Positions 797 to 30,055 of a stretch of 64,000 bases of DNA are shown one piece after another (positions within the stretch are counted from its first letter, which is position 1; the number at the start of each line of letters is the position of its first letter). The notes below the pieces were generated by a model that had not been told where the DNA came from, ran no database searches, and saw nothing but the letters and a program-made list of their open reading frames with translations. The position numbers were made by a program, and so were the translations under genes. Source of the DNA: an uncultured Thermodesulfobacteriota bacterium (GTDB lineage: Bacteria > Desulfobacterota > WTBG01 > CAIYCZ01 > CAIRTM01); contig CAZUMW010000001.1 of the NCBI GenBank assembly GCA_964621615.1, positions 28,464-92,463 on the forward strand, written 5' to 3'.

Positions 797-828
797 TGTG
801 CTGTTCCTCCTGAAAAATTCTTTGTTGT

Positions 829-1560
829 TCAGCAGAATTGTATACTGGATTTCGTTGCCCGGTAAGACACCGCTATGCCGTTTGTGAGCATGGTATATTC
901 GATGGGGTCAAAGCCGGTTTTTTGCATCATATCACAGAGCGCATCCGGCAGCGGAAACGACCGGATTGAATCCGGCAGATACGCATATGCATCCCGGGAG
1001 CCGGCAAGAACAGAGCCGGTAAGCGGTATTACCGTGCGGGAGTACAGATTATACAGATACCTGAATACGGGATTTACCGGGCGCGAGAACTCAAGACACA
1101 GAAGCGTGCCGCCCGGCTTAAGCACGCGGTGTATTTCGCGAAGCCCCCGGCACATATCTGCAAGGTTTCTGAGCCCGAACCCGATCAGTACCGCATCAAA
1201 GGATTCGCTTTTGAGCGCAAGCTGCTGCGCATCACCGCACAGGTATGTCAGCGCAGCCCCGTACGGGTTTCGGTCTTTCTTTCCCAGTCCGGCACGAAGC
1301 ATGGCAAAGGAAAAATCATACACGGTCACCAGCCCCGATTTACCTGCAGCCGGGGCCGCCTGCAGGGCAAGATCGGCGGTTCCGCCGCACAGGTCAAGAA
1401 CCCGGTCGCCGGCTTTGATGCCGGCGTGCCTCACCGCATGGCGCTTCCAGCTGAAATGCAGCCCCATGCTCAGCAGCGTATTTATCAGATCGTATTTACC
1501 GGCAATATTTTCAAAATAGCGCTGTACGGTAGTGTGTTTTGACTTGATCATACGCTGCAT
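829..1560 (-). CDS. ubiE: demethylmenaquinone/ubiquinone C-methyltransferase (UbiE/MenG class I SAM methyltransferase)
   Basis: N-terminus [28 protein letters not shown] matches the UbiE/MenG signature. SAM motif [13 protein letters not shown]. Start chosen at an internal ATG (1560; alternative 1551) rather than the ORF maximum. Confidence 0.8.
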
Positions 1561-1923
1561 CTGCGAGTTGTTGTCCGGCAGGAAGTCTTTCCTTGAACAG
1601 GCCGGATTTTGGATCATCGTCCATCCAATGTATTGTCAAACCCAAAAATTGCTTAATTCTTTATCCTTTATTTGTACCAGAAAAACGGCACAGTGTCATG
1701 ATATTATACCGTAAACACCGGTATGGCATTTGTACAATCCGGACAACGTGGCGCCGTGCCATTTTTCGGATATTAACACCAATAAATAGTTCAAACCCTA
1801 AATTAAATAACAAAAATGTATTAAATCGAAAGCTTTTTCTTGCGCAAAAATTATTTTGACAGTAATATGTATACTGTTTGTACATATAAATAGTTCGTTT
1901 ACCGCATTTTCCACTATACATAA

Positions 1924-2030
1924 AAGGCCCGGCAGACATGGCGGCCAATCACTTTCTGCCGGGCGGGGACCCGTATTCATACACGCTGAGGCATACAATC
2001 CGCGGTGGTGTATGAATACGGCTTTTTTTG
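1924..2030 (+). repeat. copy 1 of ~105-nt intergenic repeat family (conserved 5' module GCCCGGCAGACRTGGCGGCCAAT..CTTTCTGC.GGGCGGGGA, 3' perfect hairpin 1971..2022 + T-run)
   Basis: Near-identical 5' module to elements at 13685, 16930 and 31131 (inverted). The 13-bp stem CCGTATTCATACA/TGTATGAATACGG followed by TTTTTTT is an intrinsic-terminator shape. Confidence 0.65.
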
Positions 2031-2095
2031 TGTGAAAAAAACAGGCTGCAGAAGAAAATACATTGACGGTTAACTGATATTAAAAGGAAAAAAGT

Positions 2096-5000
2096 ATGTT
2101 TGTGGCAATTGTGTCAAGAAAAAGAGGCAAACGGATTCTTAAAACCCTGTCCGTGCTTGTCTGCTTGAGCTGTTTTATGCAGTTCAGCGGGCTGGTTAAT
2201 CTTGCCGCAGCCGCAAAAATCGACCGCAACACCCTTAATCTGAAAAAACAACTTCCCGAACCGCCAACGCTGAAACCGCCGAAACGCTCCCCGCTGGGCG
2301 AAAAAATAATGCGGTGTACTGTGATGCTGATGCCTGCGGCGGTAAAAGAATACGTGTACAAGATCGAGTCCATCGAACAGCAGCTCGACCTGCTGGAGCA
2401 GAAGCTTGAAAGCGGTGAAGACATCAATATCGATTACCGCATTGTGCTTGCCAAACTCGCCGGTTTGAAATCGCTAAGAAAAGAAGTGCAGCGTAATTTC
2501 CGTATCAGAAGCCGGCGCCTTAAAGAGCGTCTTGCAAAAAAAGAGATGCCGGTTGTGCGGAATGCTCTTGATGCGCTTCAAAAACAGCGCCGGGAATTCC
2601 GTGAAGCAGCAGCGCCGGTTTTCGAAACACTTGAAGCATTCGGGATCGCCGATGCGGTTGACCGGGTAAAGATAAACCGGCTGCGACGGCTTGTAAAGCG
2701 TCTGAAGGTTTTTAAACGGCGGCTTCCCCGCAGCCACGACAATCCCCTTCCCTGGCGAAGCGTTGAGCGAAATCAGGTCAAGCCCGAAACTGAAAGTTCT
2801 GTTACTCCCGCCTATATGCGATCTTCTAAAAACAGGTATGCAGCGCGGATTACAAGAAAACCGGCTGGTTCAAAAAGCCTTTCTGCTGCGGCGACCGGCG
2901 CGCCGATGCCCGATGACCTTTCAGAAACACCGGATGTTGTCATAACCCGGCAGATGCGAGATATTGTTGAGCGGCTCGGACACTCCCCGGCCCGAATCTA
3001 TGAGTGGGTTAAAAACAATATCCAATCCGAATTCTACCACGGCTCTTTGCGCGGCTCCGCGGGCACCCTTGCCAAACGCGCCGGTAACGATACCGATACC
3101 TGCTCGCTGCTGATAGCGCTTCTTCGGGCAGCCGGTGTGCCGTGCCGCTACGTGCAGGGCACGGTGGAGATACCGATGCAGCGCGCAAAAGCACTTACCG
3201 GTATCGAGCATGAGCCCCATGTGGGCCGGTATTTTGCCAACGCAGGCATTCCCGTCTGGAACACCGGCACCGGCAGGATACGCTTTGAGCACACCTGGGT
3301 TGAAGCCTGGGTTGACTATATGCCCTACGGCGGTGCAAAAGCCGGGACCGGTGACACCTGGGTGCCGCTTTCCCCCTGGTACAAAGACTATGAAAACACC
3401 CCCGGCACCGACCTTGCCGGCCTGACAGGATTTGACCGTGAAATGTTTATCAACGATTATATGCAGACCGTGCGTACCGATGACCCGGCTGATGCATACA
3501 AAATGTATTTTGACAATTGGTTCAGAGAAAACGGGCCGGGCCGGAACTGGCAGGAAGGGCTGGGCAGCCGCAGCCTGAAGCCCGAGCACTTCAGAAAGCT
3601 GCCGGCGACGGTCAATTTCGAGGTCATTTCCTTTCTGGGTGAACATGCAGCCCTGCCGCAGGATCAGCGCCACACGGTGACTATTGAAGTGCCGGAAGCG
3701 GGCATTGCATACACTATGAATATCATGGATTGTATCGGCAAAAAAATTTCTTTTGCCTATCTTCCTGCAGACAACGAAACCCGGGATCTGATTAATGAAA
3801 GGGGCGGTATTGACCATATACACCCCTTAAGTGTCAATCTGCTGCCCACGCTTCTTGTTGACGGGAAGCGGACGGCAGCGGGTAAAACGGTTAACGCAGG
3901 TTTTGAGCACGCGATGCGCGTTACGTTTTATGTGCCCGGTTTCGGAAGCGATGCGGTTATCTATGAAATGGTTTCGGGCGTCTATTATGTTCTCGGGATC
4001 GATCCGCAGCATGTAACAAACAAACTGCTTTCCGACAGGCTTTCTGGCAGGTGTGCTCAGGCTGAAGAACCCGTTTCTGCTTATGAGAATATGGATGAAA
4101 CGCCTGGTGATGCATTATATGTTTCCGTCATGAAGTATTTTCGCGACCGGAATACGGCCGATTACGACATTGCCGCCCTGTCAAAGGTCCGGGTTCTGAA
4201 GGAAACAACCTGTGCATTAATCGGCCGGGACCCACAGGTGATTGTGGACCGGTTCGGCCTGCCGGTCTCACTTGATAGGGGGCTCCTGTTTATTGATTCT
4301 CAGCGCGATTTTGTAACCCCGGTTTCGGTTGCCGGTGACAGCACGGCTGAAAAAGATTTTTTGTATATACGCGGGTATAACGCTTCATATAATGAGCATG
4401 ACATGTTTGAAGATTATGTGGGTATTGAGGCGGTTTCAACGGTTAAGCTGCTTCAGATTGCACGGCAGCACAATATGCCGGTGTATACTATCGATGCAGC
4501 TAACAGCGACAGTATCATCCCGCTTCTGGGACATGATGAAGCGGTGAAGCAGGTGATCCGGAATGCCGTACACAGAGGCCGCATTGTTACGGTACACAAA
4601 GATCCGGTGACGGTTAAGCAGTGGCGGGGAGTCGGGTATATAGAACGTGACCCGGTAACCCATGCCGCCGGGTATTACGGCATCGGCAGGAAAGGGTTTG
4701 CTTCAGCGGTTTTAACCGATATACAAAGCGAGGTGATCTGGCAGACAGGCAAAGTCGGAACGACCTGCGGCAACCCGGTCAGCATGGCAAGCGGCAATAA
4801 ACTGCAAAAGGAAACCGACCTTGTGCTGCCTGCTGCGGGAAAGGATGTTGATATAACGAGATACTACAACTCACGTGGAGACTGGGTCGGGCTGTTCGGG
4901 CACGGCTGGACCTTCACCTGTGATGAGCAGTTGCATGAGCGCTCTGCTGACGGCCAGGTTGTGTACCGGACAGCAGACGGCAGGCTGTATACCTATACCC

Positions 5001-8000
5001 CCGATGCAGACGGCACCTATACGGCTGAGCCGGGAAATTATGCGGTGCTGACAAAAACTGACGAAGGGTTTGTTATCCGCAAAAAGGGCGGCACACGGCA
5101 TCTGTTTAACCCGGCCGGGAAACTGATGCAGATCGTCGACCGGAACGGCAACTCACTGAGTTTCAGCTACAGCGGTGATGCCCTGACCGGCATTACCGAT
5201 GCTGCCGGGCGCAGGATAGACGTTGAGTGCCGGGATGGTAAAATAACACGGATCACTACTCCTGATGACGATAACACGTGGACCTACACCTATAACGGTG
5301 ATGATCTTGTCAAAGCCGTCAATAATGCAGGACAGACTGTATCCTATACATACCGGGACCATAACATGACCTCCCGAACCGGGCCCGGGGGCAAAACGGT
5401 TGTATATGAATATTACAGCAGCGGGAAAGTGCACTGCGAGCTTTTGCCCAACGGTGCCGAAATGGTGTTCAGCTACAACAGCCCGCTCAGGATAGCAACC
5501 ATGCGCGGCGGATGCTGCTCGGTCTCGCATCATTATTACAACCGGTACGGGCTGAATACGGGGCATATGGACGCTCTGGGCTATGAAGAGCTTGTTGAGT
5601 ATGATGACCAATTAAATGTGGTAAAAGTGATCGACAAAAAAGGCGGTGTGGTGAAAAACACCTATGATGAAAACGGCAACCTGCTGACAAAAACAGATCA
5701 GCTGAATCATACGACCGCCTACACCCATGAGCCGGTATATAACCAGGTCCTGACCGTGACCGACGGGGAAGGAAATACCACCACAAACACCTATGATGAC
5801 CGGGGGAATCTGCTTGCCACGGTCGATCCGGAAGGGGTGCGCATTGAACATGCATATTATGAAAACGGTCTGATTAAGACGACCGGCAGAAACGGTATTA
5901 TAAAAGCAGGCTTTACCTATTATGCGGATGGCACCCTTGCAACCGTAACGGATGGGGATAATAATACCGCGCGCTTTACCTATAACGCGCTGGGCAGGCT
6001 CACCGGAAAAACCGATGCAAACGGCAACACAACGGCATACGAGCTTGATAAGGCAGGCAATATTATCACGACGACCGATGCGGAAGGAAACCGGACCGTT
6101 TTTACCTACAACGAACAGAACCTTCGCACCAGCATGACCGATGGGCGCGGAAACACCACCACTTATGAATACAATGCGTATGGCAAACTCATAACAGTGA
6201 CCGATCCCATGGGTTTTGAGAAGAGCTATACCTATACGCCCATGTATGAGCTTGCATCCGAAACGGATAAAAACGGAAACACTACTTTCTATGTATATGA
6301 TGAGCTGCGCCGGGTTGTTGAAAAGCAGTATGCGGACGGCTCCGTTGAAACCTTCACCTACGATCCTGAAGGCAGGCTGATCAGCGCCGCGAACAGTCAG
6401 GGTACCACGGTGCAGGAATATGATGCTGCCGGGCGGCTGGTGAAAACGATCGATACCTTTGGCCAGGAAATTTCCTATACCTATTATGCCGACGGCAGCC
6501 GGAAGTCCATGACAGATCCGCAGGGCGGCGTGACACAATATGACTATTATGCAAACGGACAGATCAAATCGATTACCGGTCCCTCGGGAAAGACAACCGC
6601 CTATGCGTATACGGACGGGCTGCTTGAAAAGATCAGTAATCCAAACGGCACAGAAACCGTTTACGGCTATGATACTGCAGACCGGGTACACAGCCTTATC
6701 ACCCGCAAACAAAACGGCGAGGTGATTTCAGACATCCGGTATGAGTATGACGGTGTCGGCAATCGCCTGAGCATGACCGATACCGAAGGGGTTCACACCT
6801 ATGAATACGACATGCTCGATCAGGTCGTACGGGTCGACTATCCGGACGGTACGTTTACTGAGTATACCTATGATCCGGCATATAACCGGGCGACAATGAC
6901 AACCCCTGATGCAGCCGTTCTGTATGTGTATGACGATAACAACCGCCTGATAGAGGCCGGTGATGTAACCTTCAGCTATGATGCAAACGGCAACCAGATC
7001 AGCAGGCTGGAGGACGGGGAGGTGACCGCCTACCGGTTTGATGCAAAGAATCAGCTCGCAGGAATCTCCTTCAGCAGCGGAACTGAAAATACATTTGCCT
7101 ATAATGCCTTCGGGCAGAGGATCACCCGGAAGGACGGCTCCGCTATCATGCATTATCTGTATGACGGCAGGCAGGTGCTCATGCAGACAAACGGACAGGG
7201 CGTAATAAGCAGCGCATTTGTGAACGGATCCGGGTTAATCGGACCGCTTTATAAAAAGAACGCAAGGGATGAATACACCTGGTATGTCAGGGATGCCCTG
7301 GGCACTGCAACCCATCTGACCGATGAGGCAGGTGACATTGCTGCCTCATACCGGTATGATATATTCGGCGCGGTGCGAAGCTCAACGGTTATTGATGACC
7401 GGGGAATCAGGAATCAATATACGGGAAAAGAGCTTGACGATGAATCGGGCCTCATGTATTTCGGAGCGAGATATTATAACCCGGAGATCGGCCGGTTTGT
7501 TTCTGCTGATACCTACACCTGGGGGCCGGATGATGAGAGGGGGATGAACAGTCGCGGACAGGATCACATTTTGACATATGTTGGTGCTACTCAAACATCG
7601 CAATTAAACCTTTATGTTTATACAGCCAACAATCCTGTCAAACAGATTGATCCAGACGGACATCTAGCGGGCCTTGCTGCAATAGTTGCGTTGATTATGC
7701 TCAGTTTAGTAGCTTCTTCATTGATGGTAATTGCTAGAACTTTTACGGGTACTATAGGAAATAATGCAGCGGAAGTTTTAAGCGGAATGGTTGCTGATTT
7801 CATGACAGCGTACGGTTTGCTTGGTGCGCTTCCTGGGATAGCAACTGCTACTTTGACTTCTTTGTTGGTAAATTTTGTTACTACCCTATGGACAGAGCTT
7901 TATCTTAACCGCACAATTAGAGCAGTAAACAAATTTTACAGTGCTATTGACAGTTTGTTAGCATATTATGAATCTCCGCGTGTACAATGTCCAATTTTTC

Positions 8001-8005
8001 ATTAG
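2096..8005 (+). CDS. Rhs/YD-repeat polymorphic toxin (1969 aa) with N-terminal signal-like segment and a transglutaminase-like cysteine-protease domain; C-terminal hydrophobic toxin tip
   Basis: AGGA-like RBS before ATG. The transglutaminase-like Cys-His core is CSLLIALLRAAGVPCRYVQG ... EHTWVEAWVD (nt ~3080-3330). Dozens of YD repeats (YTYDxxGNL, nt ~4900-7200). Rhs core motif RYYNPEIGRFVSADTY (nt 7471-7518), then DPDGHLAGL (nt ~7648). The last ~110 aa are hydrophobic and Gly/Ala-rich. GC drops sharply from ~7560 to the stop. Confidence 0.85.
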   Translation: MFVAIVSRKRGKRILKTLSVLVCLSCFMQFSGLVNLAAAAKIDRNTLNLKKQLPEPPTLKPPKRSPLGEKIMRCTVMLMPAAVKEYVYKIESIEQQLDLLEQKLESGEDINIDYRIVLAKLAGLKSLRKEVQRNFRIRSRRLKERLAKKEMPVVRNALDALQKQRREFREAAAPVFETLEAFGIADAVDRVKINRLRRLVKRLKVFKRRLPRSHDNPLPWRSVERNQVKPETESSVTPAYMRSSKNRYAARITRKPAGSKSLSAAATGAPMPDDLSETPDVVITRQMRDIVERLGHSPARIYEWVKNNIQSEFYHGSLRGSAGTLAKRAGNDTDTCSLLIALLRAAGVPCRYVQGTVEIPMQRAKALTGIEHEPHVGRYFANAGIPVWNTGTGRIRFEHTWVEAWVDYMPYGGAKAGTGDTWVPLSPWYKDYENTPGTDLAGLTGFDREMFINDYMQTVRTDDPADAYKMYFDNWFRENGPGRNWQEGLGSRSLKPEHFRKLPATVNFEVISFLGEHAALPQDQRHTVTIEVPEAGIAYTMNIMDCIGKKISFAYLPADNETRDLINERGGIDHIHPLSVNLLPTLLVDGKRTAAGKTVNAGFEHAMRVTFYVPGFGSDAVIYEMVSGVYYVLGIDPQHVTNKLLSDRLSGRCAQAEEPVSAYENMDETPGDALYVSVMKYFRDRNTADYDIAALSKVRVLKETTCALIGRDPQVIVDRFGLPVSLDRGLLFIDSQRDFVTPVSVAGDSTAEKDFLYIRGYNASYNEHDMFEDYVGIEAVSTVKLLQIARQHNMPVYTIDAANSDSIIPLLGHDEAVKQVIRNAVHRGRIVTVHKDPVTVKQWRGVGYIERDPVTHAAGYYGIGRKGFASAVLTDIQSEVIWQTGKVGTTCGNPVSMASGNKLQKETDLVLPAAGKDVDITRYYNSRGDWVGLFGHGWTFTCDEQLHERSADGQVVYRTADGRLYTYTPDADGTYTAEPGNYAVLTKTDEGFVIRKKGGTRHLFNPAGKLMQIVDRNGNSLSFSYSGDALTGITDAAGRRIDVECRDGKITRITTPDDDNTWTYTYNGDDLVKAVNNAGQTVSYTYRDHNMTSRTGPGGKTVVYEYYSSGKVHCELLPNGAEMVFSYNSPLRIATMRGGCCSVSHHYYNRYGLNTGHMDALGYEELVEYDDQLNVVKVIDKKGGVVKNTYDENGNLLTKTDQLNHTTAYTHEPVYNQVLTVTDGEGNTTTNTYDDRGNLLATVDPEGVRIEHAYYENGLIKTTGRNGIIKAGFTYYADGTLATVTDGDNNTARFTYNALGRLTGKTDANGNTTAYELDKAGNIITTTDAEGNRTVFTYNEQNLRTSMTDGRGNTTTYEYNAYGKLITVTDPMGFEKSYTYTPMYELASETDKNGNTTFYVYDELRRVVEKQYADGSVETFTYDPEGRLISAANSQGTTVQEYDAAGRLVKTIDTFGQEISYTYYADGSRKSMTDPQGGVTQYDYYANGQIKSITGPSGKTTAYAYTDGLLEKISNPNGTETVYGYDTADRVHSLITRKQNGEVISDIRYEYDGVGNRLSMTDTEGVHTYEYDMLDQVVRVDYPDGTFTEYTYDPAYNRATMTTPDAAVLYVYDDNNRLIEAGDVTFSYDANGNQISRLEDGEVTAYRFDAKNQLAGISFSSGTENTFAYNAFGQRITRKDGSAIMHYLYDGRQVLMQTNGQGVISSAFVNGSGLIGPLYKKNARDEYTWYVRDALGTATHLTDEAGDIAASYRYDIFGAVRSSTVIDDRGIRNQYTGKELDDESGLMYFGARYYNPEIGRFVSADTYTWGPDDERGMNSRGQDHILTYVGATQTSQLNLYVYTANNPVKQIDPDGHLAGLAAIVALIMLSLVASSLMVIARTFTGTIGNNAAEVLSGMVADFMTAYGLLGALPGIATATLTSLLVNFVTTLWTELYLNRTIRAVNKFYSAIDSLLAYYESPRVQCPIFH

Positions 8006-8203
8006 ATCAAAAGTTTTTTTAGAGTCGTGTCAAAAAAATTCAACAACTTTCATCCCGGGCGAATAAAGTGAGATTTGGAATTTATGTTCTGTTAGATTTT
8101 CCATGGATTCCGCATTAATAGAGGGGTGAAAGAATAGATAGTTTTTTGATGCTATGCCGACAAGTGTAAATCAATATCGTACATCATTTAGGGAGTTTTG
8201 AAA

Positions 8204-8578
8204 ATGCCGTTACTGGACATATTGTTAGCCATTTTTGGTTTTGGTTTAATGGTTTTATGTATGCTGTTCCCAGAAAAAGTTAAATCATTTTATTCCACTA
8301 ATAATGAGAAAGAAATAAAACCGCAATTAAAAAAAATTACAATAGGTTTATTTGTTCTTATTATCGATTTCGGAATATGGTCTATATGTTCTTTGGTAGT
8401 TGGAATAAATATTACTGATGAAGGAAAAATATTATTTAATTTTATAACAATAATTATTGTTCCTTTAATATCTTTCATCTTTATTTTCTTTGGGCTTATT
8501 GATTTGATTAAACACTTATTATCAACAAAAAAAACGAAGCAAAAGGAAGCAAGGAATAAACCAGGGGTTACATCTTAA
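8204..8578 (+). CDS. small multi-pass membrane protein, candidate Rhs immunity protein
   Basis: Immediately downstream of the Rhs toxin tip. AGGGAG RBS 8 nt before ATG 8204. 124 aa with about 4 predicted TM helices. Very AT-rich like the toxin tip. No recognisable family. Confidence 0.5.
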   Translation: MPLLDILLAIFGFGLMVLCMLFPEKVKSFYSTNNEKEIKPQLKKITIGLFVLIIDFGIWSICSLVVGINITDEGKILFNFITIIIVPLISFIFIFFGLIDLIKHLLSTKKTKQKEARNKPGVTS

Positions 8579-9660
8579 ATAATAACTATTGCATACAAAA
8601 AGAAGCGACAATAATGTCTCAAAGACACACGATTCAATCAGATTGTATTGTGGGGAGAGATCAATGACACGTGCATTGCGTGTTGAGTATGAAGGGGCGT
8701 TCTATCATATTCTTAATCGAGGCAACGGGGGAGAGAAAGTACTCAAACAAAAGCGGGACAAGGAAAGATTTCTTCAGTATGCAGGAGAAGCCGCTGAACG
8801 ATACAGCTTTGTCATTCACACCTATTGCCTGATGGATAACCATTTTCATGTGGTTGTAGAGACCCGTGAAGCAAATCTGAGTACAGCAATGCAGTGGCTC
8901 AATGTGAGCTATGCGACATGGTATAACAAAAAGCACAGCCGAAGCGGTCATGTATTTCAGGGAAGATTCAAATCATATTTGATAGATGCGGATGAATATT
9001 TGGCAGCGGTATCCCGTTACATACATCTCAATCCGGTTCGGGCGGGGATGGCAGAAAATCCTGCGGTTTATCAATGGAGCAGTTACGGGTGTTTTGTGGA
9101 ACAACGGGAAAAGCCCGGATGTCTGGAGACCCGGAAAGTGCTTTCATATTTCAGCCCAAAGACTTCTGAGGCAATAAAGGAATATAAGAGGTTTGTTGAA
9201 AATATAGAGATAAACGCGCTTGAAAATCCCAGCAAACAAGCTGTTGAGGGATTTATAATCGGGGGAGCTGGTTTTGCAGACCGGGTGCGGCAACAAATGG
9301 TTACAGCAAATCACGAACAGGAAAAAGAGATTCCCCAGCTTAAAAGGCTTAAGCCCAAACCGGCACTTGAAAGCATAATAGAAGCAGCGTCTTATGTGTT
9401 TTGCTGCAGGAGAGAAGATATTGTAAGAAGCGGAAAGAAACATAACCTGGCACGTGATATAGCGATATATATTGCACGAACGTCAACCGGTTTGTCATGC
9501 AGAGAACTCGGGGAGCATTTTGGCGGAATAACGGGTGCCGGGATTACTATGAAGTACAGGCAGATAAAAAATCTGGCGGAAAAGGAAAAAGGTATCAGGG
9601 AAAACATAGCGAATATCAGCAGCCGTATATTTAATATTTAAGATGTGACCCTTGACTATG
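8563..9660 (+). mobile_element. IS200/IS605-like (Y1 HuH transposase + DnaA_C-like HTH) element delimited by 16-bp inverted repeats GGGTTACATCTTAAAT / ATTTAAGATGTGACCC
   Basis: The left repeat at 8563-8578 overlaps the stop of the immunity ORF. The right inverted copy is at ~9639-9656 (15/16 match). Single transposase ORF inside. Low GC. Confidence 0.5.
8664..9641 (+). CDS. IS200-like Y1 (HuH) transposase / RAYT-type protein fused to DnaA C-terminal-like HTH domain
   Basis: HuH motif DNHFHVVVE and Tyr motif RYIHLNPV (Y1 transposase fold). The C-terminal ARDIAIYIARTSTGLSCRELGEHFG resembles the DnaA_C HTH. GGGGAGAGA RBS upstream of ATG 8664. Confidence 0.7.
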   Translation: MTRALRVEYEGAFYHILNRGNGGEKVLKQKRDKERFLQYAGEAAERYSFVIHTYCLMDNHFHVVVETREANLSTAMQWLNVSYATWYNKKHSRSGHVFQGRFKSYLIDADEYLAAVSRYIHLNPVRAGMAENPAVYQWSSYGCFVEQREKPGCLETRKVLSYFSPKTSEAIKEYKRFVENIEINALENPSKQAVEGFIIGGAGFADRVRQQMVTANHEQEKEIPQLKRLKPKPALESIIEAASYVFCCRREDIVRSGKKHNLARDIAIYIARTSTGLSCRELGEHFGGITGAGITMKYRQIKNLAEKEKGIRENIANISSRIFNI

Positions 9661-9801
9661 CTCAAAAAATATTTTTTGGCAAATTTCATTGTGTTTGCTG
9701 TTTTTGTTGTTACCCTGGGTGCAGCAGTTGTACTGATTATTATAGGTCTATTTGATTTGATTCGCCATTGGTTTAAGAAAAGGAAAAGGGTCACATCTTA
9801 A
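9658..9801 (+). CDS. 47-aa hydrophobic mini-ORF, orphan immunity-like fragment (C-terminus homologous to 8204..8578 product)
   Basis: Translation MLKKYFLANFIVFAVFVVTLGAAVVLIIIGLFDLIRHWFKKRKRVTS. The C-terminus (GLFDLIRHW...VTS*) parallels GLIDLIKHLL...GVTS* of the upstream protein. The nucleotide 3' end, including GGGTCACATCTTAAAT, is duplicated. No clear RBS. Below the ORF-track length cutoff. Confidence 0.35.
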   Translation: MLKKYFLANFIVFAVFVVTLGAAVVLIIIGLFDLIRHWFKKRKRVTS

Positions 9802-9886
9802 ATATTAAATATTTCACACAAAGAGAAGCACAAATGATGTCTCATAGGAACACGATTCAGGCAGATTGTATTTTGGGGAACGGTTA

Positions 9887-10131
9887 ATGACACGTGCGTT
9901 GCGGGTTGAATATGAAGGAGTGTTCTATCATATTCTTAATCGAGGCAACGGGGAGAAAAAGCACTCAAACAAAAGCGGGACAAGGAAATATTTCTTCAGT
10001 ATGCAGGAGATGCTGCTGACCGTTACAGCCTTAACATTCATACCTATTGCCTGATGGACAACCATTTTCATCTGGTCATAGAAACCCGAGCAGCAAACCT
10101 GAGTGCGGCAATGCAGTGGCTGAATGTGAGC
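9887..10131 (+). pseudogene. truncated, frameshifted duplicate of the IS200-like transposase 5' end
   Basis: nt 9788-10131 are ~85-90% identical to 8563-8945, including leader and MTRALRVEYEG..YHILNRGNG. A 1-nt deletion (GGGGAGAGAAAG to GGGGAGAAAAAG) shifts the frame. Homology ends abruptly at ~10131. Confidence 0.6.
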
Positions 10132-10162
10132 TGTTTAATTGAAGTTGAGTAGGTTATGAATT

Positions 10163-12190
10163 GTGAAAGTTGAGTTCATGAATAGAAACCAGGCAGAAAA
10201 TGCTTTGTATCGTATTTTTGGTCACAGAGAATTTTACGATGAGCAGTGGCAGACTATCGAAAGGCTCTTTCGCGGTGAGCGTTTGTTGATGATTGAGCGA
10301 ACCGGTTACGGGAAATCCCTTTGTTATCAATTCCCGGCAACGCAGTTTAAGTATACCACCGTTGTTTTTTCGCCGCTTATTGCATTAATGCGTGACCAGA
10401 TTGACTATCTGCAATCAAAAGATATTGCCGCAGAATGCATAAACAGCGAACAGACTCCTGAAGAAAACACCCGGATTATTGCCGAGGCAAAGCAGGGGAA
10501 GATAAAGATTCTCTATATTGCGCCTGAACGCCAGGAGAATCAGGAATGGATTGAAGCTGTTCAAAGCGGACAGATAAAAATATCAATGGCAGTTATTGAT
10601 GAAGCCCACTGTGTCTCTATGTGGGGACATGATTTTCGTCCCGCTTTTCGTCGGATCATAAGTCTTATAAAAATGCTTCCCCGCAATTTTCCTGTACTTG
10701 CCACAACCGCTACCGCAACAGATCGTGTTGCTCAAGACATTATAAAACAGATGGAAGGTCATGTTAGGCTGGTGCGCGGTGATCTCATGCGAAAGAATTT
10801 TCGTTTATCGGTTGTGACTTTTGATTCAGAAGATGCAAAATTTGCCTGGGTGGCTGAATTTCTACAAAAGCAATCTGCGGATGCAACGGGAATTATTTAT
10901 ACCGGCACCAGGGTCAATACGGAACTTTATTCCCGGTGGCTTGGGGCAAACGGTTTTTCCGTGGCAAGTTATAATGCCGGTCTTGATCCGGAATCACGTA
11001 AAGCCATAGAAGAAGGATTGCTCTTAAACAAATATAACTGTATTGTTTCTACAAATGCACTGGGCATGGGGATTGACAAATCAAATATTCGTTTTATCGT
11101 ACACACGCAGCTGCCGGCATCACTGATACATTATTATCAGGAAATCGGCCGGGCAGGCCGTGATGGACTGCCTGCACAAATAGCCTTATTATATAATCAG
11201 AAAGATAGAGAACTTCCTCGATCATTTATCGAAAAAAACCGACCTGACATTAAGCTGTACACAAGAGCTGTAGACGCATTACGCCGGGAGCCTCTGGGTG
11301 AATATGATTTAATGCGCAGAACAAACCTTACCCAGACCCAGATAAGAGTCATCAGAAGCGATCTCATTGATCAGGGTATAATAAATGAGGCTGCTTACGG
11401 GGGTAAAAAGAAATATGAATTGAAACACAATGCCCCGGCTTTAGATACCGAACCCTTCAAAAGACTCCGCGGTTTCAAAGAACAGGAGCTTCAAAAAATG
11501 ATCGACTATGCAGAAGCTGAAAAGGGCGGTATGAATATTTTGTGTGAGTATCTTGGTGATAATCCGGGTGCGGCAACTGACGGCTGTGAACGTTATACTT
11601 ATGCATTAAGTGAATCCTGGAGGAAAGCTATAGCTGCATTTCGAGACGATTATTTTCCGGAGTTGCCGGTCGAGACGAAAAACAGCATTCTTATTAATGG
11701 TGTTGCCGCTTCATATTATGGTGTTTCTAATGTTGGATCGGTAATACATCGTTGTAAATATGAAAATGGTGGTGATTACCCCGGGCATTTAATAAAGCAG
11801 ACGCTAAGGGCCTATAGGGCTCGACTGAGCCAAACCGCATTTGATTTAGTTCTATATGTGCCGCCGGCGGTATCCGGTGATTTGGTTAAGAATTTTTCTG
11901 TTGCTGTAGCTAAGTCATTGGGGCTGCATTTGTCACATGGTCTTGTTAAATTAAGAGAGACTAAACAGCAGAAAATTTTTCAAAACGGCGTTTTGAAACG
12001 TGATAATGTAAAAGATGCCTTTGATTATGCCGGTCCGGAAGATATTGAGGGGAAAAGTATTTTATTAATTGATGATATTTTTGACAGCGGAGCAACAATA
12101 AAAGAGATAGGACGAATGTTAAAGAAAAAAGGAACTGCAAAAGCCGCTCCGTTGGCAATTGCCAGGACGGTTGGGGGTGATTTGTCGTGA
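10163..12190 (+). CDS. RecQ-family DNA helicase fused to a C-terminal ComF/ComFC-type phosphoribosyltransferase (PRTase) domain
   Basis: Walker A TGYGKS. DEAH box VIDEAHCVSMWGHDFRPAF. RecQ motif YYQEIGRAGRDG. No RQC/HRDC. The last ~190 aa carry the ComF signature (LRETKQQKIFQNGVLKRDNVKDAF; PRPP-binding SILLIDDIFDSGATIKE...LAIAR). GTG at 10163 or ATG at 10178. Low GC. Confidence 0.8.
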   Translation: MKVEFMNRNQAENALYRIFGHREFYDEQWQTIERLFRGERLLMIERTGYGKSLCYQFPATQFKYTTVVFSPLIALMRDQIDYLQSKDIAAECINSEQTPEENTRIIAEAKQGKIKILYIAPERQENQEWIEAVQSGQIKISMAVIDEAHCVSMWGHDFRPAFRRIISLIKMLPRNFPVLATTATATDRVAQDIIKQMEGHVRLVRGDLMRKNFRLSVVTFDSEDAKFAWVAEFLQKQSADATGIIYTGTRVNTELYSRWLGANGFSVASYNAGLDPESRKAIEEGLLLNKYNCIVSTNALGMGIDKSNIRFIVHTQLPASLIHYYQEIGRAGRDGLPAQIALLYNQKDRELPRSFIEKNRPDIKLYTRAVDALRREPLGEYDLMRRTNLTQTQIRVIRSDLIDQGIINEAAYGGKKKYELKHNAPALDTEPFKRLRGFKEQELQKMIDYAEAEKGGMNILCEYLGDNPGAATDGCERYTYALSESWRKAIAAFRDDYFPELPVETKNSILINGVAASYYGVSNVGSVIHRCKYENGGDYPGHLIKQTLRAYRARLSQTAFDLVLYVPPAVSGDLVKNFSVAVAKSLGLHLSHGLVKLRETKQQKIFQNGVLKRDNVKDAFDYAGPEDIEGKSILLIDDIFDSGATIKEIGRMLKKKGTAKAAPLAIARTVGGDLS

Positions 12191-13362
12191 TTAATACGCA
12201 CGAGTACTCATATTGGATTGCATTGAGTCATTTACCGAAATGGCGTATCGAGCGTATCAATATGCTTATTGTTGAGATCCTTCATAATAAAAATATGCAG
12301 CTCGCAGAGTTTTTTGAGCTGAGTCCGCCATCCCGGGAAAAAGAGTTTCATTTGGATCATAAGGAAAGTGCAGATATACAAAAGGCCGGGGAATATTTGT
12401 CCAATTACTCTTTCCTTGCTGAACAATTGCTTGTACAAGGCTTTGATATAATTCCTATCAGCTCCCCTGACTATTCTCCAGTGCTGAAAAACAATCTTAA
12501 ACTCAAATATTCTCCGCCCCTGCTTTATGTCAAGGGGAACAGGCGGCTGCTTTACGAGCCATCAGCCGCAATAGTCGGCTGTCGAAAAGCATCTGACATT
12601 TCTTTGCACTTTACCCGTACGATTGCTGAGAAATGTGCCCATGAAGAAAAAGTAGTGGTGAGCGGATTTGCCAAAGGTATTGACCGGCAGGCGCTTGATT
12701 CGGTCCTTGCATATCATGGCAAAAGTATTATTGTTCTGCCGCAGGGGATTATGACATTTGGCAGTGGTATAAAAAAATATTATAAGCAGCTTGTTGACGG
12801 AGATGTGCTGGTTTTAAGCACTTTTTATCCGAAAGCCCCATGGAGCGTAGGCCTTGCTATGGCGCGAAATGTATATATTTACGGTTTAGCCGAAGAAATA
12901 TTTGTGGCCGAATCGGATAATAAAGGGGGCACGTGGTCCGGTGTTCTCGATGGGTTAAAAAAGGGGCGGACAATATTTGTTCGCAAGGCGGACATACAGG
13001 AAAAGAATACAAACAATATTTTGATAGAAAAGGGAGCCCGGGGAGTAGACTTGCAGGGAAATATAATTTCTTTAGAAAAAGAAGGTATGCACCAGCATAT
13101 CATTGCAGACAATGTTGCCGCCTACGGTCTGCAAGCAGAGAATAGTGATTCATTTGAAAGTAAAGTTATACAGTATTTAAATAAGACGAAAGAGCCAAGA
13201 ACCTCCAGGCAGATTAAGGAAGCCATTAACGTAGAGGAACCTGCACAAAAGATAACGCAGAAATTAAAAAAAATAACCGGTATCAATTATACCAAACATA
13301 AAAACAAAATCTTTTTTTTCACTGAACGAACAAATCCATTAAAACAGCAGGAGCTGTTCTGA
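12187..13362 (+). CDS. dprA: DprA/Smf-family DNA-processing protein (SLOG/Rossmann fold) with C-terminal winged-helix-like extension
   Basis: The GTG start overlaps the upstream TGA (GTGA), indicating translational coupling. DprA core PLLYVKGNRRLL...AIVGCRKAS...VVVSGFAKGIDRQA...IIVLPQGI...VYIYGLAEEIFVAESDNKGGTWSG. Low GC. Confidence 0.75.
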   Translation: MINTHEYSYWIALSHLPKWRIERINMLIVEILHNKNMQLAEFFELSPPSREKEFHLDHKESADIQKAGEYLSNYSFLAEQLLVQGFDIIPISSPDYSPVLKNNLKLKYSPPLLYVKGNRRLLYEPSAAIVGCRKASDISLHFTRTIAEKCAHEEKVVVSGFAKGIDRQALDSVLAYHGKSIIVLPQGIMTFGSGIKKYYKQLVDGDVLVLSTFYPKAPWSVGLAMARNVYIYGLAEEIFVAESDNKGGTWSGVLDGLKKGRTIFVRKADIQEKNTNNILIEKGARGVDLQGNIISLEKEGMHQHIIADNVAAYGLQAENSDSFESKVIQYLNKTKEPRTSRQIKEAINVEEPAQKITQKLKKITGINYTKHKNKIFFFTERTNPLKQQELF

Positions 13363-13414
13363 TAGTGATATTTGGCAGCACGCGGGCGGTGGCACATCTT
13401 AAATAAAAAAATTT

Positions 13415-13681
13415 ATGGATGCACTTATTCGTTTTGCAACGTCTGTTTTGTATGTTTTGGCCGGCTGGGGGACAAAGCAATTTTTCAGTGGGAATATAGA
13501 TAAGTATAAAATTCTATATATAGCAGTGCCGATATTATTGGCAATATATTTTTTGGCTATAGAAAAAATGTATGAGATACAAAAGCAAAACAGAAAGATA
13601 ATTGCCAAATCCAGGAATGCCGTGATTCAATTTTTGGCATTAGCAACAATATTTTATTTTTTTGGTCTAATATTTGTGTAA
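13415..13681 (+). CDS. small hypothetical membrane protein (88 aa, 3 TM-like segments)
   Basis: AT-rich ORF at the island edge. No family recognised. Weak RBS. Confidence 0.3.
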   Translation: MDALIRFATSVLYVLAGWGTKQFFSGNIDKYKILYIAVPILLAIYFLAIEKMYEIQKQNRKIIAKSRNAVIQFLALATIFYFFGLIFV

Positions 13682-13684
13682 ATA

Positions 13685-13786
13685 AGCCCGGCAGACGTGG
13701 CGGCCAATTACTTTCTGCAGGGCGGGGATCGGTATTTATTCACCTGAGGACAGCATCCTTTGTGTGCATGAATACGGCTTTTTTTA
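13685..13786 (+). repeat. copy 2 of ~105-nt intergenic repeat family with 3' hairpin + T-run
   Basis: First ~70 nt identical to copy 3 and ~90% to copy 1. Ends GCATGAATACGGCTTTTTTT. Confidence 0.65.
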
Positions 13787-13884
13787 TGAGATGAGCACAG
13801 GGGGGCAAAAAACCGTTATTTAACCTGTGTGTCCTTGTGGTTTTATAAAATGGACGGCGGTTACATGAGTCCCCGGAGCAGTAT

Positions 13885-15057
13885 ATGGATTATGGAAACG
13901 AATTTATAGCAAAAGCAAAGCGCCTTATTTTAGTCACTATTTGTACTGTGCTTGCAGGGATCGGTCTGGTTCTGTACGGGTCCTGGTTCGGCAACCAGCT
14001 GCTGGGCATCCGCGCGCTTTGTACAGACACTGCCGGCAATGTTTATATCATAGCAAATTATACGCTCTATAAGCTGAACCGGTCGGGTGAAATACTGCTG
14101 CAATTCGGCGGAAAGGGCAGCGGGCCGGGCCGGTTTGGACAGGGGATCCCGCTTGATATGTGGGTTGATGAAAAGGGCACTATGTATGTTGCAGACATTC
14201 TTAACTATCGCATTCAAAAATTTGGTTCAAACGGTTTGTTTATCGCCCAATTCGGAAAGGCGGGAACAGAGCCGGGCGCCCTTGGAGATGCTTTTGAGCT
14301 GGCGACGGACAGTGAGGGCTGTCTCTACACGGCTGAGAGCACAAACAACCGAATCCAGAAATTCAGCCCCAGCGGAGAGCTGCTGTGGCATATAGGGAGC
14401 AGTCAGTCCCGTGATTTTAACGCCCCGCATGACCCTTTTGTTGGGCCGGACGGCACTGTGTATATCTGCGACTTTCGAAAGCAGCGAATCCAGAGCTTTT
14501 CCGGCGACGGCGCCTTCATTGCAGAGTATCCCACACGCCCGCCTTCAGATAACAGCACGCTCGGCAGCCAGAAAGATAAAATCAGCGCGTTTTTGTATAT
14601 GCTGCGCTTTCCGCAGCGCATAACCCGGGACAGCAGCGGCAATTTTTATGTGCTCAATTATAATTCAGGCCTGAGTATAGGTGCAATAAACAAATATGAT
14701 TCCGGCTTTAATCTGATCGATATTTTCGATTTATCCGATAAGGGAATACCGTTTATCACGTATCCGGCTGAAATAGCCTGCACCGCCGATGACACCATAC
14801 TGCTTATTATGCATGGCAGCATGAGCATAGAGCAGATAGCAGCAGACGGCACCAGTCTCGGTTCTTTCGGCACCGAGCAGCTTATAGCCGAACTTGATCT
14901 GCTTGGCAAACGAAAGGACCGTTTTCAGCAATTACAGCTGGCAGGAAAGCTGCTGGCGCTCATCGGGCTTGTCATGTCGCTTTTTATTTACCGGCGGTAT
15001 AAAAAAGTGCGTGATAAGGATCGAATCGCCGGCTCTCTGGTTACAAGAATCGATTAG
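13885..15057 (+). CDS. NHL-repeat (six-bladed beta-propeller) protein with N- and C-terminal TM anchors
   Basis: Repeated NYRIQKF / NNRIQKF / KQRIQSF NHL motifs. Hydrophobic N-terminal and C-terminal segments. Confidence 0.7.
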   Translation: MDYGNEFIAKAKRLILVTICTVLAGIGLVLYGSWFGNQLLGIRALCTDTAGNVYIIANYTLYKLNRSGEILLQFGGKGSGPGRFGQGIPLDMWVDEKGTMYVADILNYRIQKFGSNGLFIAQFGKAGTEPGALGDAFELATDSEGCLYTAESTNNRIQKFSPSGELLWHIGSSQSRDFNAPHDPFVGPDGTVYICDFRKQRIQSFSGDGAFIAEYPTRPPSDNSTLGSQKDKISAFLYMLRFPQRITRDSSGNFYVLNYNSGLSIGAINKYDSGFNLIDIFDLSDKGIPFITYPAEIACTADDTILLIMHGSMSIEQIAADGTSLGSFGTEQLIAELDLLGKRKDRFQQLQLAGKLLALIGLVMSLFIYRRYKKVRDKDRIAGSLVTRID

Positions 15058-16886: not shown

Positions 16887-16929
16887 CCGGCAGGATTTCA
16901 GAATAATGTAAAAAAATCATTGAATAATA

Positions 16930-17027
16930 AGCCCGGCAGACGTGGCGGCCAATTACTTTCTGCAGGGCGGGGATCGGTATTTATTCACCTGAGGACACAC
17001 TCCTGTGTGTGAAGGAGACGGCTTTTT
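16930..17027 (+). repeat. copy 3 of ~105-nt intergenic repeat family
   Basis: Identical 5' module to copy 2. 3' GGAGACGGCTTTTTTT. Confidence 0.6.
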
Positions 17028-17069
17028 TTGTGCCTGTAATCAAAATTTAATTTATAGGAGCAGGAAGAT

Positions 17070-20000
17070 ATGAAGCAGTTAATAAAGACGTGGTACGGTG
17101 TTTGGGGAGCGGTTATTATCTCTACAGTTCTGTTCACGGTGCAGGCACAGGCTCATGAGGCTGCCGTAGAAAGCGGGCTTCAGTGGCTTATAGACAGTCA
17201 GCATCCGGATAACGGCAGCTGGGGCACACTGCCGGAGCTTGATACCCCGGTTGTGCTCTCAGCCTTTCAAAAGCTCGGCGAAACGGGATATGCCTATGAC
17301 GAGGGCCTTTCCTTTCTGGAACAGACGCGGCCGGAGTGCATTGATTTTTTAAGCCGCAAAACGATCGCTTTGAGCGCTGCCGGGCGTGATGTTTCAGAAA
17401 GCCTTGAAAAAATTCTGGCGGCCCAGAATGAAGACGGCGGGTTTGGGTTTGCCCTGGGGTATTGCAGCTCTGTTATCGATTCCCTGATCGCAGCCCGCGC
17501 GCTGTCTGCTGCCGGAGTTGAGCAGCATGAAGTTATCGGCAGACTGGTATATTACATTACCGAATCGCAGAGCCAGGACAACGGCAGCTTTTCCTATGCC
17601 GCAGGCGGCCCGGAAAGCCTTGCAGTGACCTGCTGTGCAGCAATCGTGCTGAGTGACTTTTCACCCCGGTATGATGTTTCAGAACACCTGCGCAGTGCCC
17701 TTCATTTTATTTCAGGCTGTAAAAACCCTGACGGCGGGTACGGTGAGTCCGGAAGCACGGTGATCGAAACCGCGCTTGCGGTTCGGGCTCTGACTGCGGC
17801 AGGCGGCAGTGCACAGGACATTCTTTCCGGGCGGCGGTATCTGACTGCAATGCAGAATCAAAGCAGCGGAGCCTGGAATGATGCGGTTTATGAGACAGCA
17901 CTTGCCCTGCGGGCGCTTAATAATACCGATACAGTTGACCGGGCAAACCTGCAGGTACACCCCGAGGGAATCACCATGGAACCGCAGTACCCGGCCCAGG
18001 GGCAGACGGTGACCGTAACCGGTGAGGTGCGAAACACCGGCTCATCAGCTGCAGAGAATGTAGGGGTTTCTTTCTATCTCGGCGATCCGGAAAACGGCGG
18101 GGTTCATATAGACAGTGCTACCGTTTCAACCATTCTTGCCGGCGACAGCGAAGAGGTTCAGATTACGTTCACCCTTACCGGGGTAGTCGGCGAGCGGGAT
18201 ATGTATGTTGTCGCCGATCCGGATAACAGTATTCCCGAGATAAGCGAACATGATAATACAGCATCAAAAGGGTTTGTTAGCGGTACCATGCCTGATATTG
18301 CGGTGGTTGAGATTACACGGGATGTCGACACCCCTGCGGAAAACGAGCCGTTTACCATAAGCGCCGGGGTGCTCAACCTTGGTGAAAGCGATGCCGGGCC
18401 GGTTACGGTGTTTCTTTATGACGGCGATCCCGGGCAGGAGGATCCGCTGCTTAAGATCAGGCTTGACAACGTGTGCGGCGGCTGCAGCGGACAGGCTGAT
18501 TTTACGCTGCAGCTTTCAGCGGGTACACACACTCTGTATATTACCGCCTATCCGGATGATCCGAACGTAGAGGAGCAATCGCTTTCAAATAACCGGAGAT
18601 CATATACCGCTAATATTGATGGAGCCGTAATCCAGGGTATCGATCTTGCCGTCAGCCCGGCTGACATAGATTTTTCACCGCCCTATCCGCGCGACAACGA
18701 AACCGTAACCATTACCGCAACAGTGCGAAATAGCGGCAGTGAAACGGTAACCGATGCTTCTGTGGAACTGTTCCGTGCAGGTTCAGACGGAACCGGTGTA
18801 CTTATCGGGGAGCCATTTAGGGGCGTTACCGTCCCCGGAGCCGGTGCTGCCGACATTGTTATGCATGATGTGTCATTTGAAGCTGGACTTTTTGATATAT
18901 ATGTGAAGACTGACCCAGACAATACCTATGAGGAACACAGCGAGAATAACAATATAGCCGCAAAACAGCTGAGAGTATTAAGCTCAGCGGATGAGCTTGA
19001 TCTTTCAGTTGGCGAAATGTCATTTGACACTGCAACGCCGTTAGCAGGCGATCCGGTCCGGGTGAGCTGCCGGATAACCAATAACAGCACGGTTCCGCTT
19101 GAAGGGGTGAGCTTCGGCATATACGCAGGAGATCCCCGCTCGGGCGGTGCGCTTCTGATCCCCGAAGTACAGACGGTTTCAGCGCTCGGGATCCAAAGCA
19201 GTATATATATCGAAGGGACCATCGATACGGCCGGACGCGGCGGAGAGCAGCACATCTATATTATGGCGGATGTTGATAATGATATAGCCGAGCGCAACGA
19301 AGAAAACAATCTCGCATCCGCAGCGCTTGTGGTAACCGGTGAATCTGCTCCCGATCTAATCGCAACGGATGCAGATATTATAGTGGAGCCTGCAGACCCG
19401 GCTGTCGGTGACAACATGACCGTCACCTGCCGGATTACAAACGCAGGTTCTGTCGCCGTTTCAGATGATTTTCAGGTCAATGTTTACGACGGCCCGCCAT
19501 CGGAAGACAACCCGCCATTTGCCGGGCTGCCGGTAACCGGCGGTATGCCGGCAAACGGATACTATCTTGACATAACCCTGCCGATTCCTGCAGCACAGCT
19601 TGCCGGAACGCATACCATATATGTGGTGGCAGATGACGGCAATGCCGTCAGTGAGTTTAATGAATATAACAACACCGCAACAAAAGAGGTTACTGTTCAG
19701 GCAGCTGACCTGAGCATTGGTTCTGAGGATATCTCTTTCAGCCTGCCGGCCCCCATGGAAAACGAACTGTTTACCCTTACCGCTGTTGTGCACAATATCG
19801 GAATGCTCAATGTGGAGAGCATGCGGATCGCTGTATATACCGGCGACAACGACACAGCAAATCTCATCGGCGAACAACAGGCAGGGCCGATCGGTGCAGG
19901 AGAAAGCGTGAGTGTTGAAGTGGAAAATCTCGCATTTGATGCTGCCGGCTCCTATAATCTGCAGGTGAAACTCGACCCCGACAACCTGATTGCTGAGGCA

Positions 20001-29994: not shown

Positions 29995-30055
29995 CCGGAC
30001 TGGCTGTATAGAGAAGGGATACTCTATCAGGCAGTCCGGCTATCCGCTTTTGTAG
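29995..30055 (-). terminator. hairpin + U7 on minus strand in the leader of 29446..29928 (terminator/attenuator-like)
   Basis: Minus-strand reads CCGGACTGCCTGATAGAGTATCCCTTCTCTATACAGCCAGTCCGG then TTTTTTT, about 65 nt upstream of the start codon. Confidence 0.35.

Follow-up and report, generated by a model that had tools for sequence, protein, structure and literature searches.

Genes of the RAYT-like type that lie between terminal inverted repeats (TIRs) carrying the motif GGGGWSAS have been described as TIRYTs, and the resulting units as TIRtrons (Di Nocera, De Gregorio and Rocco, 2013; PMC3733652). The repeats of these genes at times form families, with single, paired and clustered copies (PMC3733652). 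In a classification of TnpA_REP-like proteins, subclass 2.1.2 was defined by a Bac_DnaA_C-like tail, of the type Bac_DnaA_C, HTH_23 or HTH_28; its identity with the TIRYTs was suggested as "to be confirmed", the flanking repeats not being definable automatically (Quentin et al., 2018; PMC6006769). Here we analyzed a stretch of 64,000 nucleotides from an uncultured Thermodesulfobacteriota bacterium (GenBank assembly GCA_964621615.1, contig CAZUMW010000001.1, positions 28,464 to 92,463 of the forward strand), hereafter called the window. The locus starting at position 8563 of the window is probably a TIRtron, that is, a TIRYT gene enclosed in its own inverted repeats of 26-28 nt, with a second copy, older or redundant and now decayed, after it. 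Its parts are the following.

8563..8589, forward strand: TIR-a, left terminal inverted repeat, AGGGGTTACATCTTAAATAATAACTAT
8664..9641, forward strand: intact TIRYT gene of 325 aa, assigned by Pfam, NCBIfam, homologues and fold
9627..9653, reverse strand: TIR-b, right terminal inverted repeat, equal to the family consensus
9786..9812, forward strand: TIR-c, left inverted repeat of the second unit, equal to the family consensus
9887..10132, forward strand: pseudogene, codons 1-82 of a paralogous TIRYT gene, frameshifted and truncated at 10132
13389..13409, forward strand: TIR-d, degenerate solo repeat (17 of 21 positions), 26 nt past the PsyrA stop codon
8565-8580 (forward), 9636-9651 (reverse) and 9788-9803 (forward): 16-nt motif GGGTYACATCTTAAAT

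We first describe the protein. It scored 55.3 bits against Pfam Y1_Tnp (cut-off 23) and 28.7 bits against Bac_DnaA_C, under the cut-off of 31.5, and its top NCBIfam match was REP_Tyr_transpos, with 73 bits against a cut-off of 80 over positions 4-146 of the 146 of the model. The HuH motif is H60-F-H62 and the catalytic Y119 lies inside SRYIHLNP; H60, H62, Y119 and R264 were invariant in an alignment of 30 homologues. The C-terminal part, approximately residues 230-322, resembles the helix-turn-helix of DnaA domain IV. In a single-sequence search of the PDB, DnaA alone was matched, and weakly, and the nuclease domain required a fold search; the family profile matched solved DnaA structures (8BTG) with an E value of 1.5e-10. 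An AlphaFold model of the protein (predicted local distance difference test, pLDDT, 82) was compared with solved structures using Foldseek. The closest fold was the E. coli RAYT on its REP hairpin (4ER8; E 1e-7, template modelling (TM) score 0.73), followed by the IS608, ISDra2 and IS200 transposases. The C-terminal third of the model superposed on DnaA DNA-binding domains (3PVP, 1J1V) with TM scores of 0.85-0.87 and root-mean-square deviations of 1.3-1.4 Å, and R264 aligned with R399 of E. coli DnaA, the minor-groove arginine of the basic loop. Profile and predicted structure together confirm the kinship of the tail with DnaA domain IV, despite the sub-threshold Pfam score. In the TIRYT tail, (S/T)GA(G/A)IT stands in place of the base-reading signature DHTTV of DnaA; therefore, a different DNA target is expected. 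The initial annotation, made from the sequence alone, had already read a single HuH-Y1 gene with a DnaA-like helix-turn-helix tail, and Pfam, profile and fold agree with it. Exact-sequence database look-ups of the Y1 protein returned none.

The same annotation had placed 16-bp inverted repeats around the gene, at 8563 and 9641. Such repeats are present, but we found them at 8565 and 9636, and the arms are longer, 26-28 nt. When two mismatches were allowed, GGGTYACATCTTAAAT had one additional match in the window, at 13389-13404 on the forward strand, which gives 4 matches in total against 0.06 expected from shuffles. Positions 8562-8589 and 9627-9654 are complementary over 28 nt (86%) and bracket the 325-aa gene, and 9627-9653 and 9786-9812 are complementary over 27 nt (100%) and bracket a small open reading frame (ORF), the mini-ORF, between the two units. 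The perfect match between TIR-b and TIR-c arises because both equal the family consensus, and we therefore rejected it as a mark of recency; TIR-a differs from the 21-nt family core at 2 positions. Each arm agrees with GGGGWSAS at 7 of 8 positions (GGGGTTAC, AGGGTCAC). The inner half of TIR-b encodes the conserved C-terminus of the protein, IFNI-stop. The repeat is non-palindromic and without a GTAG head, and folds of both ends as single-stranded DNA were no better than those of shuffles (z -1.5 to +1.7), so that subterminal hairpins are absent. No target duplication was seen at the element, whose outer flanks are purine-rich with no fixed word, and Rfam gave no match in the element region. 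A scan for sigma-70 promoters and terminators over 8000-10300 was not above chance; the left repeat as supplier of a -35 box, an arrangement seen in relatives, is thus unsupported in the window. TIR-d is placed and oriented like solo repeats elsewhere, and may be coincidental, with approximately 0.06 expected per window.

More than 4,740 homologues came out of a database search; almost all measure 324 aa and have both domains, and they occur in Desulfobacterota, Nitrospirota, Planctomycetota and other hosts, the nearest being 67-68% identical. From species-representative genomes we collected 80 loci (labelled L001-L080; further L numbers below are likewise our locus labels), of which 69 were analysable for repeats. 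When the sequence ahead of the gene was compared with that at its end, the best inverted repeat was 20-40 nt long and started with (G)GGGTCA in approximately 60 of these 69 loci, which come from many phyla. The layout of the family is a left repeat 20-90 nt ahead of the start codon, frequently ending in TTGACA in the relatives, and a right repeat over the stop codon. Loci with the nearest proteins (45-53% identical) bear nearly the repeat of the window, GGGGTCACATCTTAAATATTAAGTATT. Across L001-L080, the repeat class as defined by the bases after GGGGTCA (CATCT, GGTCT, AACCT or GCCCT) follows the recognition-helix motif, the motifs matched to classes being GGITGAGIT, G-IGESAVSQ, G-VKGPAVSG and GGLSYSAVAK. 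This tracking, from a statistic that ignores kinship, fits a helix-turn-helix domain that would read the repeat. Identical homologues recurred across many samples, always with the same neighbours, at one fixed locus each. A scan of viral contigs gave 2 distant matches only, and therefore the family is not a phage-borne one. At four loci of distant relatives, L030 (490-587 and 1578-1681), L047, L060 and L066, we observed two to three tandem repeats per side or repeats that are long hairpins in themselves (hairpin-forming repeats at L060 and L066), an arrangement that bridges the TIR-type and REP-type layouts.

The repeat is also dispersed without the gene, as observed on metagenome contigs rather than in the host genome. 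Scanning such contigs with the 21-nt core retrieved at least 120 stretches, and the stretches listed hold 183 copies. A Y1 gene or fragment lay on the inner side of 50 of these copies, 69 were gene-less with at least 1.2 kb of inner flank (119 assessable copies), and the 64 others lay too near a contig end to be judged. The gene-less forms comprise solo repeats, inverted pairs, direct arrays and several units on one contig. Inverted pairs with 38-70 nt between the repeats were found at L100, L111, L122, L130, L131, L136, L141, L158, L173, L184, L185 and others; the resulting miniature units measure 59-90 nt, that of L158 being 59 nt. Internally deleted derivatives of 130-750 nt keep both ends. 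The conserved stretch amounts to 26 nt, GGGTCACATCTTAAATATTAAnTATT, with a purine-rich outer flank. At L143, five solo copies (346, 3263, 4432, 4490 and 5510) share one orientation, each just 3' of a housekeeping gene that runs the same way; at approximately 3330 of the same contig, 70 nt from one solo copy, lies a repeat of another TIRYT class. A gene at a fixed locus together with a spreading repeat matches the RAYT/REPIN picture. As a separate observation, the outer flank of the repeat frequently shows short tandem duplications with partial repeat starts, such as GGGCTTCA-GGGTCACATCTTA-GGGCTTCA-GGGTCACATCTTAAAT (L141 490-560, L117 approximately 10520-10600, L100 325-353, L097, L142 and L218 approximately 7040-7110), which have the appearance of scars left when the end of the element was acted on repeatedly.

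By analogy with RAYT/REPIN and IS200/IS605 systems, the helix-turn-helix domain would dock the protein on the repeat and the Y1 tyrosine would nick and rejoin one DNA strand at the repeat ends, with the result that mainly short gene-less units would spread, and the gene itself rarely. The locus shares with the described TIRYTs and TIRtrons a RAYT-like gene, terminal inverted repeats that are not REP hairpins, the GGGGWSAS motif and gene-less copies, the latter seen here in metagenomes; this likeness is one of motif and layout. The decayed tandem copy and the Rhs and defence-island setting of the window are not in that study (PMC3733652). With subclass 2.1.2, it shares a long Y1 protein, a Bac_DnaA_C-like tail, a serine beside the catalytic tyrosine (S117-R118-Y119) and the lack of REP sequences nearby; the difference is that flanking repeats were seen here, at approximately 60 of 69 loci.

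The RAYT/REPIN systems, with E. coli TnpA_REP (PDB 4ER8), were reportedly described by Nunvar in 2010 and by Bertels and Rainey in 2011. They resemble the locus in providing the top fold match, in a fixed-locus gene between inverted short repeats and in dispersed inverted doublets, which we found on metagenome contigs and not in the host genome. However, REPs are hairpins with a GTAG/CGTC head and are species-specific, whereas the repeat of the window lacks both palindrome and GTAG and is kept across distant hosts, and a DnaA-type domain is added to the protein. The IS200/IS605 transposases (TnpA of IS608 and ISDra2) share the HuH/Y1 fold and the catalytic motifs. They differ in size, approximately 130-155 aa against approximately 325 aa, and in their ends, the window having inverted repeats and no subterminal hairpins; moreover, we found no identical copies at several sites, and the two adjacent copies of the window are 86% identical. 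With DnaA domain IV (1J1V, 3PVP, 8BTG), the tail has in common the fold and the basic-loop arginine; DHTTV is replaced, and the repeat is not a DnaA box.

We then compared the two units of the window. Positions 8563-8910 and 9786-10132 are 86% identical over 346 nt (blastn E 4e-114), which bears out the extended identity claimed for this region, and the fragment of the second unit begins 132 nt downstream of the first. The frameshift proposed for the second copy is the loss of one base in a G run (GGGGG at 8727-8731, GGGG at 9950-9953), and the similarity stops abruptly at 10132, short of the PsyrTA module. Logan assemblies of three other runs reproduced 6727-8730, 9924-13171 and 11766-13710 at 100% and broke only inside a 32-nt stretch common to both copies, 8731-9923 lying outside this independent confirmation; therefore, both copies are genuine, as are their outer junctions, and a collapsed repeat is excluded. 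The copies are mutual nearest relatives, with 71 of 82 residues shared against at most 66 of 82 with any database protein. Their bases differ by 14%, and the coding part holds 14 synonymous and 13 non-synonymous changes (proportion of differing synonymous sites, pS, approximately 0.27; of non-synonymous sites, pN, approximately 0.067; pN/pS approximately 0.25). The leader is 79% identical and the flank approximately 57% over 51 nt. With this pS and pN/pS, the recent tandem duplication that had been proposed is not supported. The substitution pattern indicates that most of the divergence accrued with both copies under purifying selection, as working genes separate for a long time.

Two small ORFs adjoin the left repeats of the units.

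8204..8578, forward strand: 124-aa multi-helix membrane ORF, candidate immunity protein for a membrane-type Rhs tip, with its stop in TIR-a
9658..9801, forward strand: mini-ORF of 47 codons between the units, single-helix membrane protein, its VTS-stop encoded by TIR-c

TIR-a covers the final codons and the stop of the 124-aa ORF. This ORF had itself as sole match among 5.8 billion proteins, and the mini-ORF had no exact or family match in databases. The claim that the mini-ORF duplicates the end of the immunity gene stands in part: the ORF exists and a residual protein likeness to the 124-aa ORF is found, but the shared 3' nucleotides are the repeat itself. The likeness is weak (17 of 51 residues, pairwise E 0.007) and partly the repeat; with the repeat-encoded residues removed, the alignment with the last ~50 residues of the 124-aa ORF still beats 1,999 of 2,000 shuffles. 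The last 14-16 nt of the mini-ORF are repeat, and unrelated metagenome ORFs that run into the repeat likewise end in VTS-stop or GSHLKY-stop (23 of 109 copies), the lysine- and arginine-rich tails stemming from the purine-rich flank of the repeat. Since the repeat encodes it, the shared VTS-stop ending is largely an artefact. On these alignments, descent of the mini-ORF from an older immunity-type gene is possible but unproven. We also considered a single immunity gene split by the first unit and rejected it: without 8563-9653 the ORF stops 2 codons earlier (TGA) and is not fused to the mini-ORF.

Two histories of the double unit were weighed, and the present data fit both. As a tentative proposal, a block made of an Rhs tip, an immunity gene and TIRtron 1 may have arrived beside a resident immunity gene with TIRtron 2. 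Of the old immunity gene, such an arrival would leave the 3' end as the mini-ORF, together with a redundant TIRtron 2, which would then decay and be cut by the insertion of PsyrTA. We slightly prefer it because it accounts both for copies that diverged under selection in different genomes and for the exact coincidence of the end of unit 1 with the repeat terminus, the right edge of the unit being the outer end of TIR-b. Somewhat doubtful in our eyes is a single old tandem duplication in place, of a segment that starts midway through the immunity gene and reaches as far as the right end of the element, with both copies functional for a long time before the downstream one decayed. The mutual nearest kinship of the copies, the head-to-tail geometry and the alignment of the mini-ORF with the ~50 last residues of the 124-aa ORF (equalled by 1 of 2,000 shuffles) speak for it. 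Yet a redundant tandem copy should decay or homogenise quickly, and instead pN/pS is approximately 0.25 at a pS of approximately 0.27; the flank is far more diverged than the leader; and random unequal crossover would not be expected to place the boundary precisely where the repeat ends on its outer side.

The units lie in a low-GC island (7500-14000; GC content 28-46% against 52% for the window), which comprises, in order, the Rhs tip, the candidate immunity gene, both TIRtron units, PsyrTA, TIR-d and an 88-aa membrane ORF (13415-13681). The neighbouring genes are the following.

2096..8005, forward strand: Rhs/YD-repeat toxin of 1969 aa, with RHS_repeat, DUF6531 and a transglutaminase core
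10178..13362, forward strand: PsyrTA toxin-antitoxin/defence pair (PADLOC, PsyrT 794 bits and PsyrA 259 bits)
10178-12190: PsyrT, RecQ-type helicase fused to a phosphoribosyltransferase
12187-13362: PsyrA, DprA-like

The hydrophobic C-terminal tip of the Rhs toxin begins in the low-GC zone. Exact-sequence look-ups of the Rhs protein gave none, and tblastn of its last 330 residues against the window recovered the gene itself only. No orphan Rhs C-terminal fragment is thus present in the window, and the "Rhs orphan array" of the initial annotation finds no counterpart there. PsyrTA starts 45 nt past the point where the second Y1 copy is cut off and is flanked by two same-direction repeat copies, that of the truncated unit on the left and TIR-d on the right. 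The 88-aa ORF shows no clear kinship to either of the two small ORFs described above.

Other features of the surroundings were recorded. A repeat of approximately 105 nt, 82-92% identical between copies, occurs at 1927-2035, 13681-13788 and 16926-17032 on the forward strand and at 31128-31231 on the reverse strand. Of its two hairpins, the second precedes a T run, and the repeat has no Rfam match at E up to 1. Three of the four copies lie 40-100 nt upstream of genes for large secreted proteins (Rhs, an NHL-repeat protein and a 3027-aa adhesin), which makes the repeat a candidate leader or attenuator. The 3027-aa surface protein (17070-26153), with this repeat ahead of it, carries CARDB, PKD, prenyltransferase-like toroid and ice-binding-like adhesin domains. 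A c-di-GMP-I riboswitch was detected at 30027-30107 on the reverse strand (49 bits, gathering score 35).

Most relatives have unrelated housekeeping genes as neighbours. The same-strand order of Rhs gene, candidate immunity ORF and TIRtron observed in the window (2096-9653) recurred at three other loci, which belong to unrelated organisms. L037 (Nitrospiraceae, 90-5985) has an Rhs gene and a 127-aa membrane ORF, with the repeat 6 nt further. L218 (1342-8193) has an Rhs gene, a 328-aa beta-propeller ORF and a TIRtron, with the GC content falling from 0.52-0.57 to 0.32-0.34 at the tip. L188 (reverse strand, 1-1942) has the final part of an Rhs gene, whose membrane tip is rich in glycine, and a 164-aa ORF, with the repeat 30 nt further. 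The Rhs proteins of these loci are only approximately 26% identical to that of the window, and therefore the cases count as independent; no other Rhs gene was found in approximately 1.3 Mb of flanks. Three cases among the 74 loci with enough upstream sequence correspond to P(>=3) of 8e-6 to 1.5e-3, with chance rates of 0.05-0.3% per locus that were assumed and not measured. The link with Rhs-immunity modules suggested by the initial annotation thus seems real, and our literature searches found no report tying TIRYTs to Rhs loci. In addition, at L195 (11379-14279), we noted by eye that a different Y1 gene, along with a deleted TIRtron and a miniature of the repeat, is interleaved with two small toxin-antitoxin-like ORF pairs, one ORF ending inside a repeat.

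A preference for AT-rich accessory DNA could explain the placement beside Rhs and defence genes. More speculatively, and improbably on our assessment, TIRtrons would be markers, and perhaps the origin, of the distal boundary of exchangeable cassettes of Rhs tip and immunity gene and of other conflict modules (PsyrTA, toxin-antitoxin): nicking by the Y1 protein at the repeat would let the upstream block travel with the element or recombine at the repeat. Hints in this direction are the recurring order of Rhs gene, immunity ORF and TIRtron at unrelated loci, the coincidence of the end of unit 1 with the repeat terminus, and the four copies of the repeat that punctuate the low-GC island. One-ended mobilisation, with which this would compare, is a property of the HuH elements IS91/ISCR, and IS-like elements downstream of Rhs genes occur as H-rpt/ISAs1 in the E. 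coli Rhs elements. The latter likewise place a transposase-type gene at the distal edge of the variable Rhs tip and immunity region. Both differ from the TIRtron in belonging to other enzyme families, and we saw no sign here of a TIRtron moving adjacent DNA.

What the element does was weighed between three readings. In the initial annotation it was an autonomous insertion sequence of the IS200/IS605 type, recently duplicated in tandem with the end of an immunity gene in an Rhs orphan array. The Y1_Tnp domain, the truncated second copy, the recurring Rhs-linked occurrences and the internally deleted derivatives bounded by both repeats in metagenomes, which resemble transposon-derived miniatures, agree with this; however, the ends are inverted repeats, which IS200/IS605 elements do not have, subterminal hairpins are lacking, the best family and fold matches are RAYTs, and identical homologues keep to one fixed locus with no identical multi-site copies found. 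Since the copies moreover diverge by 14% with a selection signature, no orphan Rhs tips exist and the ending common to the ORFs is repeat sequence, "recent" and "orphan array" are largely refuted, and we hold the reading as a whole to be very unlikely. An unlikely, but less so, alternative is a domesticated regulator, a protein that no longer moves DNA and binds the repeats as a factor linked to transcription or replication, the repeats persisting as binding sites or terminator-like sites 3' of genes. Homologues at single fixed loci, solo repeats just 3' of co-oriented genes (TIR-d included), the TTGACA end of the left repeat in relatives and the strong conservation of the repeat between proteins only ~50% identical are in its favour. 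The invariant HuH motif and tyrosine argue that the nuclease chemistry has been retained, the existence of miniature pairs and deletion derivatives implies that mobility occurred in the past, and the promoter scan of the window was not above chance, all of which speak against it.

The TIRtron reading, which we consider the probable one, has its own points on the debit side. Bac_DnaA_C and REP_Tyr_transpos both scored just under their curated cut-offs. Few repeat copies were seen in the 64-kb window, three and a degenerate one, and identical homologues were seen solely at one fixed locus each, with no sign of movement of a whole gene-bearing unit. The correlation between repeat class and recognition helix is uncorrected for phylogeny, and the DNA likeness between the mini-ORF and the immunity gene reaches only p of approximately 0.045, with its best match elsewhere in the gene. 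The arrival of a block and an old duplication in place are indistinguishable on the present data. Finally, our literature searches returned no functional study of any TIRYT, and because none has been studied experimentally, binding, cleavage and mobility are argued by analogy alone.

The class itself has been known from bioinformatics since 2013-2018, and in this respect the base finding is ordinary. The approximately 60 loci confirm that subclass 2.1.2, with its DnaA-tailed Y1 proteins, corresponds to the TIRYTs with their flanking inverted repeats, a link left open in 2018. A repeat of 21-26 nt that is kept across hosts with ~50% identical proteins and is mostly gene-less offers a REPIN-like system that is tractable by biochemistry. 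The placement after Rhs toxin-immunity pairs and beside defence and toxin-antitoxin modules provides a testable lead on how such cassettes are delimited or exchanged. We know of no right-hand junction for the "C-terminal displacement" of Rhs proteins; a role of TIRtrons as cassette boundary, if true, would give a mechanism for it.

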